A stretch of DNA of 29,792 bases from a virus (lineage: Duplodnaviria > Caudoviricetes). This document shows positions 1-24,716 of the stretch, in pieces. Under the pieces are notes generated by a model. It was given only the letters and a program-made list of their open reading frames with translations, ran no database searches and had not been told where the DNA came from. The DNA lies in IMG/VR virus record IMGVR_UViG_3300011339_000381, positions 1 to 29,792 of that record; one strand, written 5' to 3'. The first letter of the stretch is position 1; each line of letters starts with the position of its first letter. The position numbers were made by a program, and so were the translations under genes.

Positions 1-26
1 TCCATGCTTTGTGTTATTGTTTTCAT
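1..26 (-). CDS. 5' end of a hypothetical protein running off the window (MKTITQSM...)
   Basis: ATG at 26-24 overlaps the TGA of ORF 23..379 (ATGA coupling); the frame is open to position 1. Confidence 0.5.
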
Positions 27-379
27 AGTTCTTTATACTTTAAGTTTCTGTCTGTGTAGAAATGGCTAGGGTTTGAACAATGCTTGTTGCCACAGGACAT
101 TTTGATGGCTAAATGATCTATGGGTTCGCCATGTAGTTCCATATACAATAAGCGATTGCTTTGTGTCATTTGGCGTTCTTCATTTTTGTAAGCACCAAAG
201 ATATTGCCGTGGTCATTGCTACTGCCAATCCAAGCCCAGCACTTATCTATGTCTGTTTTGACTATGCGTTTGTGCAGTAGTTCTGTATCCCACGACCAAT
301 TGCCAATTCGATGTGTGATATTTCTTTTTGGACCTGGGCTGTATCCCTTTGGTCTTCCAATTGGTTTCTTTTCTTTCAT
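23..379 (-). CDS. His-Me finger/HNH-like zinc-binding protein with N-terminal AT-hook-like motif, probably nuclease-dead
   Basis: CWAWIG...NRLLYMELHG...SCGNKHCSNPSHF matches the phage HNH pattern CWxWxG...HR...H.C.N..C.NP.HL; N-terminal KKPIGRPKG; SD GAAAGG upstream. Confidence 0.7.
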   Translation of the reverse strand: MKEKKPIGRPKGYSPGPKRNITHRIGNWSWDTELLHKRIVKTDIDKCWAWIGSSNDHGNIFGAYKNEERQMTQSNRLLYMELHGEPIDHLAIKMSCGNKHCSNPSHFYTDRNLKYKEL

Positions 380-401
380 TATTTGCCTTTCGTGTTATGT
401 G

Positions 402-407
402 TATTTA
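402..407 (-). promoter_or_regulatory. TAAATA late-type promoter upstream of the HNH-like gene
   Basis: ACATAAATAC on the minus strand in the 380-416 intergenic gap; same core as the other sites. Confidence 0.5.
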
Positions 408-727: not shown

Positions 728-1840
728 TCAAAGTATTTCTAAATCCAATTCTATATCAAATCCAGTTTTAGTCCTAACAAAATTCCTTAAAGAAATTTGA
801 TCTACTTCATTTTCACATACCCAACCATCATGTTCTGTAAAGAACTTGTTATTGGTTTCTGTCAAATAATCAGTAATAGCACTAAGAACTCGCATCTCCA
901 AAGCAAAATACAAATTCCATTTCTGTTTACCTGTTATAGCACAAGTTCTTTGTTGACCTGTTTTAGTTGTATAAGTTCTTTTTTGTAATGTGGGTTTGAT
1001 GTAATCCCACATAATTTTAATTTCATCACGAAGTCCTGAAATAAATGGATCTTGTTTTAAGTAATGAATTCTCGCAATATCTCCTTGTAATAATTGATAG
1101 ATATCACTGTCTTCATGTAGTCCTAATCTAGCACCTGCAAAAAGGGCATTGATTATTTCTTTGGCAAGTTCAGGAGTTATCTCTGCTCTTTGTGCCAATT
1201 CATTTCTTACTTGAGTTCTGTCTTTGAGATATGCTTGTATATTTGGTAACCACAAATCCATGGGTCCTTGTAGCCATAATGCTCTTTTGTTGTTTTGGGG
1301 TCCTACTTGTTTTATTGAATCAAGCACTTCTGGTATTTGTTGGCTATGTTGTAATAGTAATCTAGGAGCACAACATTGAATGTCATATTGATATTTTAAA
1401 TTACTATCGCTGAATACTTTACGCTTTACTTCTCGTCTTACTCGTTGTAATGGATGCCAATTTCTATTTGATTTATTTTTATATTTGAATACCTTAGTGC
1501 TGAGTTCTTCGTTAAATTCTTCTTTGGCCCAATCAACAGCATTGACTTGTAATACACATGTAGACATTGAGCCAGTTTGTAAACTACTAACTCCTTGTGG
1601 ATTTAATTTATATTTCTTACTAACATGACTTAGACTGCTGTAATGCTGATCAGTGCAAATCAATAATGTATCTCTTAGATATTTTGATAATGGATTACTG
1701 CTAATACCAAAATATCGGTCTATATAACGAGTGCTCCAACTGCGTTCTTTAGTTTCGCTAAAACAAGCACAGGCAAATCCAATGGCTCGTTTAATTCGTC
1801 TTGCTACTCTAGGATCATTAAAGTTTGGTGTGTAAGTCAT
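728..1840 (-). CDS. Stand-alone superfamily-A polymerase-like protein (TV-Pol-like; candidate primase/replication initiator) with N-terminal putative DNA-binding domain
   Basis: Motifs in order: SNRNWHPLQ...KRKVF (GR/NLQ region), YDIQCCAP (motif A, D153), AKEIINALFAG (motif B-like, K227), FTEHDG (motif C, H337-D338). No exonuclease or helicase domain. Confidence 0.7.
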   Translation of the reverse strand: MTYTPNFNDPRVARRIKRAIGFACACFSETKERSWSTRYIDRYFGISSNPLSKYLRDTLLICTDQHYSSLSHVSKKYKLNPQGVSSLQTGSMSTCVLQVNAVDWAKEEFNEELSTKVFKYKNKSNRNWHPLQRVRREVKRKVFSDSNLKYQYDIQCCAPRLLLQHSQQIPEVLDSIKQVGPQNNKRALWLQGPMDLWLPNIQAYLKDRTQVRNELAQRAEITPELAKEIINALFAGARLGLHEDSDIYQLLQGDIARIHYLKQDPFISGLRDEIKIMWDYIKPTLQKRTYTTKTGQQRTCAITGKQKWNLYFALEMRVLSAITDYLTETNNKFFTEHDGWVCENEVDQISLRNFVRTKTGFDIELDLEIL

Positions 1841-2262
1841 TTTTTACCGCCAAACAACTTATCAAAGTCAGGTGTAGTGGATTTTTTCATGCCCTGTTCT
1901 TCAAATACTATTCTTGGTATTTCGTAGATGTCACTCATTAATTGACTGAGTTCTTCAATACCATCACACTGTCTTGGACTTAGGTCTCTGCGTTTTGGGT
2001 CTTGCTCTAACTTATCAAGTATACCTTGTGCAAAACTTTTTGGTGTGTTATGCTCATTGTTTACCTGTGGCTGGCGTGGCAGTTTATCATTGGGTTTATT
2101 AAACCATTGTTTGAACTCTGGTCTTGGATCTGCGTTTTCCAAACAGAGATAACCTAGCATAACGGTTTTGAGCCAATGCTGGTCTTCAAATTTAACTGTG
2201 CGTAGCGTGTCTTTAGTGTTAACACCTACTCGCTTTTTGTAAGTGATAGTTTCTTTTGTCAT
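1837..2262 (-). CDS. Hypothetical protein, 141 aa, translationally coupled to the polymerase-like gene
   Basis: ORF track; ATGA overlap at 1837-1840; AGAAAGAAAG upstream of the start. Confidence 0.8.
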   Translation of the reverse strand: MTKETITYKKRVGVNTKDTLRTVKFEDQHWLKTVMLGYLCLENADPRPEFKQWFNKPNDKLPRQPQVNNEHNTPKSFAQGILDKLEQDPKRRDLSPRQCDGIEELSQLMSDIYEIPRIVFEEQGMKKSTTPDFDKLFGGKK

Positions 2263-2311
2263 AAGTCTTTCTTTCTATAAAAATGTATTTGCCAAATACT
2301 TGTGTTAAATG

Positions 2312-2349
2312 TATTTATGTATTATAGTCTATTTCTTAGAGTTAGTCAA
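2312..2349 (-). promoter_or_regulatory. Sigma70 promoter with a nested TAAATA element for the 141-aa/polymerase operon
   Basis: TTGACT (2349-2344), 17 nt, TATAAT (2326-2321), then TAAATA (2317-2312). Confidence 0.8.
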
Positions 2350-2363
2350 CAGAAAATTTAGCC

Positions 2364-2395
2364 AAAAAAAAAGCACCAAATAAATGGTGCTTTTT
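2364..2395 (-). terminator. Intrinsic terminator, potentially bidirectional
   Basis: AAAAAGCACCA-UUUAUU-UGGUGC followed by a U9 tract on the minus strand. Confidence 0.8.
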
Positions 2396-2496
2396 AATCT
2401 AGCATTGCGCTAGAATGTAGGGGCTTTTTGAGGCTTCATATACTTTGGCAAATAACGAGAAAGGAATGTCTTACGACATACAACACTTGCCCCTAC
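2364..2496 (-). ncRNA. Candidate structured small RNA 1 (about 133 nt)
   Basis: Begins 4-5 nt after TAAATA (2506-2501). Closing stem UGUAGGGGC/GCCCCUACA (2497-2489 with 2424-2416), GNRA hairpin AUGUC-GUAA-GACAU, second hairpin CUAGC/GCUAG, intrinsic terminator; no minus-strand ORF. Confidence 0.65.
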
Positions 2497-2503
2497 AATG
2501 TAT

Positions 2504-2674
2504 TTAGTTTAATTCTTCTAACTTTCTTTGCCGCAGAAGTATTTCTTTTTGAAGTTCGTGGCGTAGTTCTTCATCAGTCATTTCAGCACGAACTATCTTA
2601 ATGGCTTCAGCAATCTCCATACCAGTGTATAAACGATACATTTCTCGTATCTGTGTTAAGCAGTCTTGGTTCAT
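2504..2674 (-). CDS. Hypothetical protein, 56 aa (MNQDCLTQIREMYRLYTG...KLEELN); not in the ORF track
   Basis: Manual translation; ATGA overlap with the upstream ORF; GGAG upstream; its stop lies inside the TAAATA motif. Confidence 0.7.
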   Translation of the reverse strand: MNQDCLTQIREMYRLYTGMEIAEAIKIVRAEMTDEELRHELQKEILLRQRKLEELN

Positions 2675-2835
2675 CCAATCTCCACAGAATTAATTTTAAT
2701 GGTTTGGTTCTTTGGTGCTGGAACTTCTTCTAAGAAAAGTTTTTTAGCAATCTCAGCATTGGGCACCGTTGTAATCACATACTGTTTACAGCGTTGTGCT
2801 GGTAGTAGTGTGTAAGTAATGATGTAGTCGTTCAT
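2671..2835 (-). CDS. Hypothetical protein, 54 aa
   Basis: Start re-assigned to ATG 2835, which follows AGGA and the upstream stop. Confidence 0.65.
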   Translation of the reverse strand: MNDYIITYTLLPAQRCKQYVITTVPNAEIAKKLFLEEVPAPKNQTIKINSVEIG

Positions 2836-2836
2836 T

Positions 2837-3118
2837 TTATTTTCCTGAACAATAAACAATTTTCACAGCATCATAGTCACTGACATACTTGGCCAATTCG
2901 CCCTTGCCCATTCTGTGAGACTGCATTTGAATTGCCATGCGGCTTGTATTCACTGCGGTAGTGTCCCAGCGATGTTTATCCATGCATTGATCCAATTCAC
3001 TAGGTGCTTTGGCTACAACAGGCTGTGGTTCTTTTTTAATTATAGGTAAAGCAATAACCAAACCAATAATAGCACCAAATACTATTATTGCAACCGTGCC
3101 TTTAGTTTCTGTTTTCAT
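2837..3118 (-). CDS. Small membrane-anchored/exported protein, 93 aa
   Basis: Start re-assigned to ATG 3118 (SD GAGGA); N-terminal hydrophobic helix VAIIVFGAIIGLVIALPII; two Cys in the soluble part. Confidence 0.75.
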   Translation of the reverse strand: MKTETKGTVAIIVFGAIIGLVIALPIIKKEPQPVVAKAPSELDQCMDKHRWDTTAVNTSRMAIQMQSHRMGKGELAKYVSDYDAVKIVYCSGK

Positions 3119-3173
3119 AATAAATCCTCTGTGTGTGTTAAGTGTGTTATGTTCTACGCTGAACATAGTAAAT

Positions 3174-3202
3174 ATTATACTACGTTCAGCATTTTAAGTC
3201 AA
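3174..3202 (-). promoter_or_regulatory. Sigma70 early promoter
   Basis: TTGACT-N17-TATAAT. Confidence 0.85.
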
Positions 3203-3203
3203 T

Positions 3204-3500
3204 TTATGCAGGAACTTTGCCTACCATATATTTTGCAGGGACCTGCTGTTTGATAGATGATTTCATATATGAATAATATTGCTTTTCGGTTTTGAAGCAA
3301 TCAATATTACAATTCAAACTCAAATCAAAGTTAATCATAAAACCAGTATCGGTAATGTCCCATCCTGTAAAATATGGACGATCAATATAATGATTATCAA
3401 TCCAGCGATAAATGCCAGATTCTGTTAAATCAGTATCAATAAACAGATCAGCGGTGCCATCTGTATTAATGTCTGCTTTGACGAGGTTAATGTAAGCCAT
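3204..3500 (-). CDS. Hypothetical early protein, 98 aa
   Basis: ORF track; SD AGGAG; has its own promoter. Confidence 0.8.
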   Translation of the reverse strand: MAYINLVKADINTDGTADLFIDTDLTESGIYRWIDNHYIDRPYFTGWDITDTGFMINFDLSLNCNIDCFKTEKQYYSYMKSSIKQQVPAKYMVGKVPA

Positions 3501-3563
3501 TTTGTAATCTCCTGATTAAAGTTAAGTTATACAGAACAGCACCTTACTGCCCTGTATGTATGT

Positions 3564-3592
3564 ATTATAACACCGAATTCAATTAGTGTCAA
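3564..3592 (-). promoter_or_regulatory. Consensus sigma70 early promoter with extended -10
   Basis: TTGACA-N17-TATAAT with TGt immediately before the -10. Confidence 0.9.
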
Positions 3593-3844
3593 TTAAATGC
3601 AACAATCAAGAACCATCTTGTAGTCAGCGAATGAGCAAGGCTTGCCCGCCCAATGTTTAGACAAGATATCTTTAATAAATTGGCGATTCAATATACGCTC
3701 TAATCTATCTGCTTGGTCATTCAATACACGACCAATGACAATCTGGCCCACCATCATACTCATAAACAATGCAGGGTCTTGATTGAAGATTTCTTCGCTC
3801 ATAATTACATCATCGCCGTTGGGCACTATTACTTTATTAGCCAT
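3593..3844 (-). CDS. Hypothetical early protein, 83 aa
   Basis: ORF track; SD AAGGAG; has its own promoter. Confidence 0.8.
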   Translation of the reverse strand: MANKVIVPNGDDVIMSEEIFNQDPALFMSMMVGQIVIGRVLNDQADRLERILNRQFIKDILSKHWAGKPCSFADYKMVLDCCI

Positions 3845-3877
3845 TTAGTTCTCCTTGAACTTGTTGTTGAAGTAGTT

Positions 3878-3906
3878 ATTATAACATCAAAACTAATTTA
3901 GGCCAA
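3878..3906 (-). promoter_or_regulatory. Sigma70 early promoter with extended -10
   Basis: TTGGCC-N17-TATAAT with TGt before the -10. Confidence 0.75.
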
Positions 3907-3908
3907 TT

Positions 3909-3943
3909 AAAAAAACCTGCCATAGCCATGCCGCAAACGCAGG
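3909..3943 (-). terminator. Possible terminator insulating the early promoter
   Basis: CCUGC...GCAGG followed by U7; the loop is large (18 nt). Confidence 0.35.
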
Positions 3944-3948
3944 AAAAG

Positions 3949-3966
3949 TGTTGTGTTTTTACAACA
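3949..3966. promoter_or_regulatory. Palindromic operator-like site TGTTGT-N6-ACAACA
   Basis: Perfect 6-bp arms about 43 nt upstream of the -35 of the first early promoter. Confidence 0.5.
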
Positions 3967-4067
3967 TTTTCGTATTTTAGTCTAATTTGCACCGTCTGGG
4001 GGTCTACATACTACTAGTGTATTAATAATACTAAATTATACCATAGTAATTTCGTATTAGTTGACAC

Positions 4068-4103
4068 AAAAGAAAGCCCGGGAAATATGCCTAAAACCCG
4101 GGC
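4068..4103 (-). terminator. Intrinsic terminator ending the late region and sRNA 2
   Basis: 7-bp GC stem, 14-nt loop, UUUCUUUU. Confidence 0.75.
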
Positions 4104-4151
4104 AGTCTCATTTTCAAGGATATACTCAAAGCCTGGTCAAAAACTTTAAGC
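4068..4151 (-). ncRNA. Candidate small RNA 2 (about 84 nt)
   Basis: Starts 5 nt after TAAATA (4162-4157) at the first base of stem GCUUAAAG/CUUUGAGU; linker contains UCCUUGAA; ends in a GCCCGGG/CCCGGGC stem plus UUUCUUUU. Confidence 0.55.
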
Positions 4152-4159
4152 ACTAGTAT

Positions 4160-4663
4160 TTATGTAAACTCTCCTTGTGGCATGTTGTCCCTGGGCTTGC
4201 CCAACGTAGGAGTAATATCTATTTCAAACTTAGTTTGTAGTTCTTCATAGTAGCCCATGGTAAACAATCGTTCTTCTGCGGTTTGTTCTACGGCACAGGC
4301 TCTAGTGTGTAGAAGTGTGCGTTGAGTTCTAAGTTTGCTGGGTCTGCGTGGCACAGCCCAACATTGTTCAAATGGCAAAGGATCAGCCCATGCCAAAAAC
4401 TCTTGAAGTTTTTCATCGGGCACATAGTAAACTGTCCACCAACTATTTGATTTTTTATCTTGATAAAATACTTGATCTTCTATTACGGGACAGTCCCATG
4501 GTAGTGCATTAAGCACAGCATAGTTGTAGTTGTCTGGTTCAGGTAAACTGTAATCAGTTATAGTAGTTAAAGGTCTAGTCCAACCAATGTGTTTTGCTAT
4601 TGCGATCCTAGGATCGGTGATGGTAATGTTTCTAGGCATTACCCATTTAGAGTCTCTTTTCAT
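4160..4663 (-). CDS. Hypothetical protein, 167 aa, possibly leaderless
   Basis: ORF track; CTAAGTA-GTAGT-ATG upstream with no SD. Confidence 0.75.
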   Translation of the reverse strand: MKRDSKWVMPRNITITDPRIAIAKHIGWTRPLTTITDYSLPEPDNYNYAVLNALPWDCPVIEDQVFYQDKKSNSWWTVYYVPDEKLQEFLAWADPLPFEQCWAVPRRPSKLRTQRTLLHTRACAVEQTAEERLFTMGYYEELQTKFEIDITPTLGKPRDNMPQGEFT

Positions 4664-23627: not shown

Positions 23628-23656
23628 TATTTATTTGTATTTTATTAAGTTAAATA
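23628..23656. promoter_or_regulatory. Divergent pair of TAAATA elements
   Basis: Minus strand TAAATA(23633-23628)-ATAGT-ATG for the TerS-like gene; plus strand TAAATA at 23651-23656 ahead of the GNAT gene. Confidence 0.6.
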
Positions 23657-23676
23657 CTTGATTGAAAGGAATCGCA

Positions 23677-24216
23677 ATGCATTATACTTGGACAAAATGT
23701 AGCACCGCCGACAGCGGAGACTTAATGGCACTTAGCCTAATGGTTGAGTTCGAAGTCAATAAAATATTCAACTTTAATCCTAATGTTCTAGCACATAACA
23801 TCGTGTTAGGCTTGGTAAATCAATTTTATACTGGCAGTAGTGATCTTATCTGTGGCGTTAGAGACAAAGATAATAAACTAATGGCTTATACATGGGCTAA
23901 GACCGGAGAACAAACCATATGGAGCACCGAACAAGTCATGAGCATCCGCATGGCGCATGTTGATCCTACACTTAGTTCACGCACACGCATAAAATTACTA
24001 GAGGATATGTTAGATATTTGGACTCGTTTCGCACAACTAACTAACACACCTGTTATTGCCAGTAGCACATTACGCAATGAGCAACAGGCATTTCTAAAAC
24101 TACACCAACGACGCGGTTATATCATTAAAGGTAGCACCGCATACTTAAGAGTAGACTTATCACATAAGCCTACTACGCTATTTGATAACCCGACACAAGC
24201 CACTCCTGCCAATTAG
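23677..24216 (+). CDS. GNAT-family acetyltransferase-like protein; the only credible plus-strand gene
   Basis: Start re-assigned to ATG 23677 (SD GAAAGGA); GNAT-like order LMAYTWA...MAHVDPTLSSRTR...AFLKLHQRRGY. Confidence 0.7.
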   Translation: MHYTWTKCSTADSGDLMALSLMVEFEVNKIFNFNPNVLAHNIVLGLVNQFYTGSSDLICGVRDKDNKLMAYTWAKTGEQTIWSTEQVMSIRMAHVDPTLSSRTRIKLLEDMLDIWTRFAQLTNTPVIASSTLRNEQQAFLKLHQRRGYIIKGSTAYLRVDLSHKPTTLFDNPTQATPAN

Positions 24217-24280
24217 TTGATACCTAGAGTAGAAACAGGCAAAATAACTCTAGTTCTTGATGGGGTTCCGACCTGTTAAC
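24150..24280 (-). ncRNA. Candidate pseudoknotted RNA 3' of dps, antisense to the GNAT 3' end
   Basis: Four nested or crossing helices plus an 11-bp hairpin; several G-U pairs form only on the minus strand. Confidence 0.5.
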
Positions 24281-24281
24281 T

Positions 24282-24716
24282 TTAATCTTCTAATGTAGAT
24301 TTCAACATCCATATGAACTTAGCCAATGCTAAGATTCTATCCTGGGCGTAATTGGCAATCTCTTTATGTTCTTCTTCATCTGCTACTGTCATCAGTTCTT
24401 CATAGCAGTCTTTTAATGTTACTAAGTCATCATAGACTCTGCTTAACAATACATCAGCCTTACCTTCAATGATATCAGTGGTAATCTCACTGGTATCTAA
24501 TACACCATATATGTCACAGGGCATGAACTCATCTATACTGCGTAGTAATTCACCTATAACATCAATTTGATCTTGTAAATCTTCGTAGATACCGCCAAGC
24601 AATGTGTGATCACTTTGGAAATTGCGTCCCACTATGTTTACATGTGCTACATGGCTGCGAAAATACGCAACAAAGTTATCGTTGAATACTTGTGTTAGTT
24701 GTAATGCTGTGGTCAT
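24282..24716 (-). CDS. dps: Dps/ferritin-like protein
   Basis: HVAHVNIVGRNFQSDH...YE...DVIGE matches the Dps signature H..HWN..G..F...H...Y......D..AE; C-terminal KFIWMLKS. Confidence 0.9.
   Translation of the reverse strand: MTTALQLTQVFNDNFVAYFRSHVAHVNIVGRNFQSDHTLLGGIYEDLQDQIDVIGELLRSIDEFMPCDIYGVLDTSEITTDIIEGKADVLLSRVYDDLVTLKDCYEELMTVADEEEHKEIANYAQDRILALAKFIWMLKSTLED

Follow-up and report, generated by a model that had tools for sequence, protein, structure and literature searches.

Two small structured RNAs are encoded on the minus strand of IMG/VR record IMGVR_UViG_3300011339_000381 (Duplodnaviria; Caudoviricetes), whose whole stretch of 29,792 nucleotides (nt) we analysed and call the window. 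Each follows a TAAATA box, a putative promoter, contains no open reading frame (ORF), has a conserved structure and ends at an intrinsic terminator, the traits of a small RNA (sRNA). Sequence comparison indicates that the first, RNA 1, is a previously undescribed conserved family. With moderate confidence, we propose that RNA 1 represses translation of the phage's own DNA-handling genes once a TAAATA-reading polymerase is active, and that RNA 2 is a second sRNA whose target is probably not the adjacent gene. The original prediction had instead described a paired switch, in which two late-transcribed RNAs are each antisense to the translation start of the early gene just downstream. The positions it quoted were all correct. 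The two TAAATA boxes (4162-4157 and 2506-2501) overlap the stops of the 167-amino-acid (aa) and 56-aa genes; sigma70-type boxes lie at 3906-3878 and 2349-2321, and both RNAs have a terminator. On comparative evidence, the RNA 1 half of the proposed circuit stands and gains a target, an HNH-like gene.

We gathered RNA 1 loci through the 167-, 56- and 370-aa proteins of the window and through pattern scans, keeping those with TAA[AG]TA upstream and an enclosing stem. At least 146 occurrences of the core were found and 20 passed; the weakest locus, L146, was dropped as a chance match and L263 was added, giving a set of at least 20 loci including the window. An exact 15-mer scan gave 56 matches, 55 of them unrelated by their flanks. 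The closing stem showed two-sided changes at eight of nine pairs in 19 aligned sequences, with G-U pairs among them, and none of 500 shuffles reached its covariation score. Inside the stem, the core UAUUUGCCAAA sits in the loop of a weak hairpin and is constant across the family. A covariance model built from RNA 1 found one copy in 15 of 32 related records and none in five jumbo-phage records or ten RNA-1-negative records, and searches of cultured phages returned short matches only, with no RNA 1 homologue. Rfam had no match to RNA 1 or RNA 2, in line with the original prediction, which did not recognise the family: at E <= 1 the window gave only Atu_At1, elsewhere, and 12 homologue loci gave a single tRNA at the gathering score. 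These RNAs were not described in the literature that we searched on TAAATA phage late promoters and on phage and satellite sRNAs; subscription journals, bioRxiv supplements and large supplementary catalogues of candidate RNAs lay outside that search.

Behind RNA 1 come, in order, its terminator, a sigma70-type promoter, a second TAAATA and the leader of the next gene. The RNA 1 core (2454-2444) is complementary to this leader (2296-2286) over 11 base pairs (bp), a match found in two of 2,000 dinucleotide shuffles of the leader, and AGAAAG follows at 2276-2271 and 2272-2267. The original prediction took the pairing part of the RNA to be unpaired. For RNA 1 this is too simple, as the core lies in the loop of a weak hairpin and its target (2299-2285) is also a hairpin. 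Among relatives, the gene after the RNA 1 cassette differs, the 141-aa gene of the window being swapped for others, and at least five unrelated families occur in this place. The constant loop UAUUUGCC is complementary to GGCAAAU of the leader behind it, and GGCAAA or a close variant is present in 14 of the 18 first downstream leaders. The leader motif frequently lies within a hairpin loop; the stems vary between loci and target hairpins occur in some leaders only. Non-coding copies of GGCAAAT number 16 in 11 records with RNA 1 and three in ten records without it (binomial p 0.0035).

The stretch 5' of the core varies between loci and pairs with the Shine-Dalgarno (SD) region or the start of its own leader, over 10 bp in L102, L113, L118, L181 and L188 and over 11 bp in L115. 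We compared the pairing of each RNA with its own and with foreign leaders, using 18 loci in 11 groups and taking one locus per group. The whole RNA 1 paired better with its own leader (-21.4 vs -18.0 kcal/mol, p median 0.002), as did the variable 5' arm alone (-12.7 vs -10.2 kcal/mol, p median 0.0025, maximum 0.012). Pairing extends over 18-19 nt with one bulge in L113 and L080. Record G012 has a different core and a matching change in the leader; 14 of 15 positions pair, and this start ranks first of 30. RNA 1 seed and target thus vary together at the level of sequence. Co-variation of this kind was foreseen for both RNAs and is seen for RNA 1 (p about 0.003) and not for RNA 2 (p about 0.6).

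We then ranked minus-strand start sites as RNA 1 targets, allowing two starts per ORF and including accessibility. The next gene was called in ten of 11 records and ranked 3, 2, 1, 3, 3, 9, 1, 3, 7 and 1 among 26-40 starts (mean quantile 0.096; p 1e-5 if records are independent). In the ranking that left accessibility out, the 141-aa gene of the window came 28th of 37, probably through a wrong choice of start. The covarying stem, the recurrent complement, the preference for the own leader and the high rank of the next gene together support the claim that RNA 1 is antisense to the leader behind it. Within the window, the best predicted target with accessibility included is a site missing from the original prediction, the start of the HNH-like gene (387-377), at -13.4 kcal/mol and with the start codon inside the duplex. 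RNA 1 matches this leader over 9 bp, a length reached in 72 of 2,000 shuffles, and in six records an HNH start takes one of the top two ranks. At 23651-23662 (plus strand), the sole clear plus-strand gene of the window (184 aa) has a TAAATA and an SD that by eye is complementary over 9 nt to the anti-SD arm of RNA 1.

Several observations weigh against this account of RNA 1. The motif is missing from four of the 18 leaders, and the HNH-leader motif is absent in five of the 11 RNA 1 records. Six of the 16 intergenic GGCAAAT copies belong to one HNH leader and may share a single origin, and a similar bias to RNA 1 records is seen for three of 11 control motifs (11 vs 5, 10 vs 4 and 7 vs 0). Because loci were chosen by the core motif, its invariance is partly a product of selection, and the inner core hairpin with its GCCA loop shows no two-sided change. 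Grouping in the leader test was done by eye, and genomes that are related do not count as independent; the 3' arm of RNA 1 showed no covariation in the same test (p 0.77), and in the raw pairing matrix own leaders seldom came first against foreign ones. After accessibility, the first leader of the window reached only -7.7 kcal/mol and ranked third. Six RNA-1-like units with other cores ranked 1, 13, 3, 2, 25 and 9 (p 0.009). All energies came from custom ViennaRNA scripts, whose model leaves out loop-loop pairing.

Units built like RNA 1 with other cores also emerged from an independent scan for TAAATA-started units. Candidates occur in G008, G009, G012, G018, G019, G021 and G030, with up to three per genome, and one in G008 contains a 15-bp complement to the SD region of a distant gene.

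Could the complementarity of RNA 1 and its leaders have another origin? If GGCAAATA/TATTTGCC, occurring in both orientations, served as an operator in the DNA or as an RNA motif bound by a protein, pairing would be a by-product. The window target is a perfect odd palindrome (2299-2285), self-complementary, and the motif lies just downstream of promoters, a typical place for operators. However, most leaders have a half site only, with unrelated flanks, and orientation is fixed, TATTTGCC always lying in the RNA and GGCAAAT always in the leader. Covariation between the variable arm and the SD is independent of the motif, and the enclosing stem covaries with G-U pairs. We consider this explanation very unlikely. 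Still less credible, and in our view close to negligible, is that the units only terminate or stabilise upstream mRNAs at the 3' end and carry anti-SD stretches by chance. In the window each unit does come after a stop codon and has a terminator at its end, but several units in relatives have their own TAAATA after a separate upstream terminator, and the unit shifts between upstream genes while keeping loop sequences that a terminator does not need.

RNA 2 presents a different picture. Its family comprises 19 loci, in which a complete 5-bp basal stem with several pair types at positions 3-5 is followed by a CCU/CCC linker (mostly UAUCCU) and a terminator. The hairpin loop is GGCCA or GCCA in most members and GACCA in the window. 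A MAFFT alignment of RNA 2 gave no consensus fold; the stems come from a table anchored on TAAATA, with the register assumed. The box stands free, after a terminator, in at least six of the 19 loci, so the overlap of gene stop and TAAATA, real in the window, is incidental rather than a rule. Likewise, the layout said to occur twice does recur in its elements, and the two copies are not equivalent: about 160 nt of other hairpins separate the RNA 2 terminator from the next promoter.

The proposed target of RNA 2 was the SD of the adjacent 83-aa gene, where UCCUUGAA (4120-4113) matches UUCAAGGA (3859-3852) over 8 bp. This match is not beyond chance, since 196 of 2,000 dinucleotide shuffles attain it. 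RNA 2 paired no better with its own than with foreign leaders (p median 0.62, or 0.46 with the hairpin; 11 loci in seven groups), and the adjacent gene ranked 1, 6, 42, 37, 6, 15 and 21 among 28-42 starts, a uniform distribution with mean quantile 0.52. Two loci separate seed from target: in L008 a nearly identical RNA 2 precedes a gene whose SD differs, and that strand of the record has a single UUCAAGGA, away from any start; L095 has the same 83-aa leader behind a different RNA 2 linker. On these grounds RNA 2 is probably not an antisense RNA of the adjacent SD, and the full model, in which both RNAs silence the gene directly downstream as a paired late-to-early switch, appears improbable. 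It draws on the window, where the adjacent 83-aa gene is the best start for RNA 2 (rank 1 of 37, -6.0 kcal/mol), and on the linker, UAUCCU in the window, which is anti-SD-like in all homologues. A generic anti-SD match was one concern about such pairings; the high rank of the next gene sets RNA 1 apart from it, whereas RNA 2, also anti-SD, ranks at random.

The RNA 2 loop is complementary to AUG-GC and its linker to AGGAU, in antiparallel order, which suggests that RNA 2 binds start sites. A kissing dimer through a GGCC loop was rejected, as the palindrome is absent in the window, L008, L090, L091 and L071. AUG-GC begins 179 of 1,678 ORFs in five jumbo-phage records, and we asked whether the main targets of both RNAs are mRNAs of the host or of a co-infecting jumbo phage, with own-leader matches secondary. 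The constant core would fit such an external constraint, and SviR, an sRNA of the Vibrio cholerae satellite PLE, has separate seeds for satellite and helper mRNAs in the available part of its description (bioRxiv 10.1101/2022.04.08.487710). Yet in the five jumbo records, which are not known helpers, no gene family exceeded shuffled seeds for RNA 2 (best z -2.06 vs -1.5 to -2.4 in 12 shuffles), and nothing exceeded shuffles for RNA 1. A 389-aa virion gene has an AGGAU SD in four of four orthologues and AUG-GC in only two, and a protease start matching the RNA 1 core was found in one of seven orthologues. The arm of RNA 1, moreover, tracks its own leader. We regard control across genomes as the main role of both RNAs as unlikely.

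What reads TAAATA bears on when these RNAs would be made. The motif occurs 12 times on the minus strand of the window, 11 times at gene starts or ends (by eye) and once inside the terminase gene. Across 714 ORFs in 21 related records, 39 of 53 close TAAATA-ATG pairs had a spacing of exactly 5 nt, and the 5' stems of RNA 1 and RNA 2 begin at about this offset. Because the offset is the same before ATGs and RNA stems, the simplest reading is that TAAATA is a promoter with a start at +6. The five jumbo records show a similar peak at 4-5 nt (60 of 82). RNA 1 has TAAATA only, consistent with the proposed late-to-early shut-off, but its target leaders carry both a sigma70-type box and TAAATA at all 18 loci shown with sequence. 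As the target operon also carries TAAATA, it is not purely early, and this part of the proposal needs amending.

No sigma factor was found among the 37 window ORFs or among 53 proteins under 420 aa from two complete relatives (30 of the 32 proteins listed for one and 23 of the 36 for the other). A domain search for sigma factors gave matches in three of 14 jumbo records. An 86-aa gene beyond the window's end is common to the small phages (15 of 21 records; eight of eight complete) and jumbo phages, for example at L270:16946-17206 and in 14 other records, and at L311/L312:8001-8294. Its protein has 14 cultured matches, all jumbo phages, such as Atu_ph07 and PA5oct, in which it is the only one of 24 or 25 genes shown that has TAAATA at most 45 nt upstream. 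It lies behind TAAATA at 55 of 56 distinct large-phage loci and begins AUG-GC at 56 of 56, which makes it a candidate link to helper transcription. PA5oct relies on host RNA polymerase, and the accessible part of its description reports only sigma70-like motifs. Since TAAATA heads a gene shared with jumbo phages and no sigma factor was found in the 30-40 kb phages, a co-infecting jumbo phage may trigger the RNAs; we infer, with less weight than the pairing results, that the TAAATA factor likely comes from such a phage, as for SviR. A divergent factor of the small phages or a host sigma factor is also possible. The 370-aa protein is an unlikely reader, as it forms no family in four or more of the 21 records.

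Taken together, the sequence data suggest the following mechanism. The operon behind RNA 1, with its two kinds of promoter box, could be transcribed immediately by host sigma70 and at a later stage from TAAATA, and RNA 1 from TAAATA only. The GCCA loop of RNA 1 would first contact the complementary GGCA, often in a leader hairpin loop, as a kissing complex. The covarying variable arm would then pair across the SD or start codon and block ribosome loading. One RNA 1 is predicted to act on several leaders per genome, that of the HNH-like gene among them. RNA 1 would thereby build up only while TAAATA is active and limit translation of the polymerase-like operon and the HNH-like gene; with TAAATA in the target leaders as well, the circuit would both limit output and close an early phase. 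RNA 2, with its anti-SD and anti-AUG-GC parts, may act on an mRNA outside its own genome, or loosely on many mRNAs. A wider version of this scheme is tentative, and we think it possible rather than probable: virion-building phages of 30-40 kb would borrow the late factor of a co-infecting 300-500 kb jumbo phage, and TAAATA-driven sRNAs would make the arrival of the helper act as a switch on translation, with RNA 1 shutting the phage's own waiting or replication programme through co-evolving seed-leader pairs and RNA 2 hitting helper or host start codons.

Among known systems, SviR is one point of comparison. In the available part of its account, it is an intergenic sRNA with its own promoter and terminator, peaks late, is induced by the helper phage ICP1 and pairs with the 5' untranslated regions of several PLE operons, one reporter being lowered in a seed-dependent manner (10.1101/2022.04.08.487710). 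RNA 1 resembles it, as far as that account goes, in its predicted action on several own leaders and, presumably, in late, helper-induced expression. Compared by description and not by sequence, SviR measures 160-300 nt and belongs to an integrated satellite, whereas the present RNAs measure 85-130 nt and belong to elements that carry terminase, portal, capsid and tail genes of their own; dependence on a helper and targets within it, features of SviR in the same account, are conjectural here. The phage of the window is not a classical satellite: PLE, PICI and P4 lack virion genes or are integrated, and here capsid, portal, terminase and tail-fibre genes are present.

The C4 antisense RNA of P1 and P7, as portrayed in the accessible portions of its sources, lies upstream of the genes it controls, in the c4-icd-ant operon, has a closing stem around inner hairpins and hairpin targets (a1b1), and serves lysogeny (PMC8198154, PMC2864571). 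In outline, this upstream RNA with its closing stem and hairpin targets may resemble RNA 1 on that partial description: the closing stem of RNA 1 covaries, but its inner core hairpin lacks two-sided changes and target hairpins are seen in some leaders only. RNA 1 differs: it has a promoter box and a terminator of its own, another core and neither icd nor ant genes, and its terminator separates it from the target promoter. The C4 models (RF01695, c4-2 and c4-a1b1) gave no Rfam match in the window or in 12 homologue loci, and no antirepressor or icd family was found among the 37 window ORFs. By covariance model and gene context, then, RNA 1 is not a C4 member. C4 is cut by RNase P from a longer transcript. 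The CI RNA of P4 is a small structured satellite-phage RNA that pairs with non-overlapping leader sites, is cut from the leader under its control, causes termination and maintains immunity; unlike this excised RNA, RNA 1 finishes at a terminator of its own, ahead of the target promoter. T4 late promoters carry TATAAATA, similar to the present box, and T4 encodes its own late sigma, in contrast to the phages studied here, where no sigma was found. T4 RegB, in the consulted portion of its source, inactivates early messages at the SD (PMC3014915). The likeness in the site of attack is thus partial: RegB is a protein nuclease, whereas the agent here would be an RNA.

Few phage sRNAs have known targets in their own genome, and the examples compared here, C4 and SviR, serve lysogeny or satellite conflict. 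RNA 1 can be tested directly with reporters, since the family is compact and its RNA-target code can be read from natural variation, and it points to a broader set of TAAATA-driven RNAs in this phage group. If a jumbo-phage factor does read TAAATA, virion-complete phages would depend on another phage for transcription only, an unusual parasitism, and one frequent enough to turn up in many aquatic metagenome records.

As a linear virus record, the window is 83% complete, and nearly all of its genes lie on the minus strand. Pfam and PHROG searches of its 37 ORFs identified SU10-type capsid and portal, terminase, tail-fibre-like, Dps-like and HNH-like genes. Metagenome runs containing the phage include riverine and freshwater samples, and the RNA-bearing group consists of small uncultured aquatic phages of 30-40 kb. 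A search for the host matched two contigs of metagenome-assembled genomes from different phyla and indicated no host. Four DNA runs compared with the window showed strain variants only, and a search of genome contigs gave no clear prophage. The RNA locus lies in a variable region between the structural genes and the 370-aa polymerase-like protein. The coordinates of the features are listed in Table 1.

Table 1. Positions of the RNAs, promoter boxes, leaders and genes in the window.
Feature	Position	Strand	Remark
RNA 1 (putative 5' end)	2364..2496	-	closing stem 2497-2489/2424-2416
RNA 1 GNRA hairpin	2479-2466	-	
RNA 1 variable anti-SD arm	about 2466-2458	-	
RNA 1 constant core with GCCA loop	2454-2444	-	
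RNA 1 GCAA hairpin	2413-2399	-	
RNA 1 terminator	2395-2364	-	terminator-like hairpin 2395-2368
TAAATA box of RNA 1 (putative promoter)	2501..2506	-	
Sigma70-type promoter of 141-aa/polymerase-like operon	2321..2349	-	11 of 12 matches
Second TAAATA box, within 141-aa leader	2312..2317	-	just behind -10 box
Target leader 1	2263..2299	-	GGC-loop hairpin 2299-2285, then AGAAAG SD region
TAAATA of HNH leader	407-402	-	
Target leader 2 (HNH-like gene)	377..407	-	TAAATA and GGCAAAUA directly ahead of AUG
RNA 2 (putative 5' end)	4068..4151	-	5' hairpin 4153-4122, UAUCCU linker 4122-4113, terminator 4109-4068
TAAATA box of RNA 2 (putative promoter)	4157..4162	-	5 nt ahead of 5' stem in 18/19 homologues, 4 nt in one
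Sigma70-type promoter of 83-aa gene, no TAAATA	3878..3906	-	
SD region of 83-aa gene	3852..3859	-	8-bp match to RNA 2, chance-level, not conserved
167-aa conserved gene	4160..4663	-	stop overlaps RNA 2 promoter box; family in 18/21 records
83-aa gene	3844-3593	-	preceded by sigma70-type promoter without TAAATA
56-aa gene	2504..2674	-	stop overlaps RNA 1 promoter box; family in 7/21 records
141-aa gene	1837..2262	-	behind RNA 1 cassette
370-aa protein, family-A polymerase-like fold	728..1840	-	model pLDDT 91.8
118-aa HNH-endonuclease-like gene	23..379	-	PHROGs E 9e-9; family in 17/21 records

The best Foldseek matches to the 370-aa model were T7 and Pol I polymerases (E 2e-4, TM about 0.4), and the sequence itself had no match in the PDB, Pfam or PHROG. 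This short polymerase-like protein has 491 metagenome homologues and none in cultured phages. The 167-aa protein had no Pfam or PHROG match, and Atlas searches with the 141-aa and 167-aa proteins yielded leads only. The 167-aa, HNH-like and 86-aa genes and the TAAATA system are retained across records with two unrelated virion gene sets (21 records), and the regulatory core therefore seems older than the structural module.

Early promoter-leader cassettes repeat at 3597-3555, 3912-3872 and 3214-3139 of the window and act as exchange points, as the contigs of relatives are linked through them and differ in the genes in between. AT-rich nested inverted repeats fill the stretch from the RNA 2 terminator to the next promoter (4067-3906, minus strand); a similar palindrome lies 3' of the terminator in many relatives, possibly an origin or a protein-binding site. 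Directly behind the Dps-like gene is a structured element (24181-24290, minus strand), the site of the weak Rfam match to Atu_At1 (E 0.045). It is recognisable at nine of 13 Dps loci, has no TAAATA ahead of it, and by eye its 5' segment and hairpin loop change together in a pseudoknot-like manner. Finally, in the complete record G007 (L270:386-3005) the major capsid gene consists of two PHROG-matching pieces of 127 and 262 aa with about 270 nt between them, possibly reflecting an intron or a frameshift.

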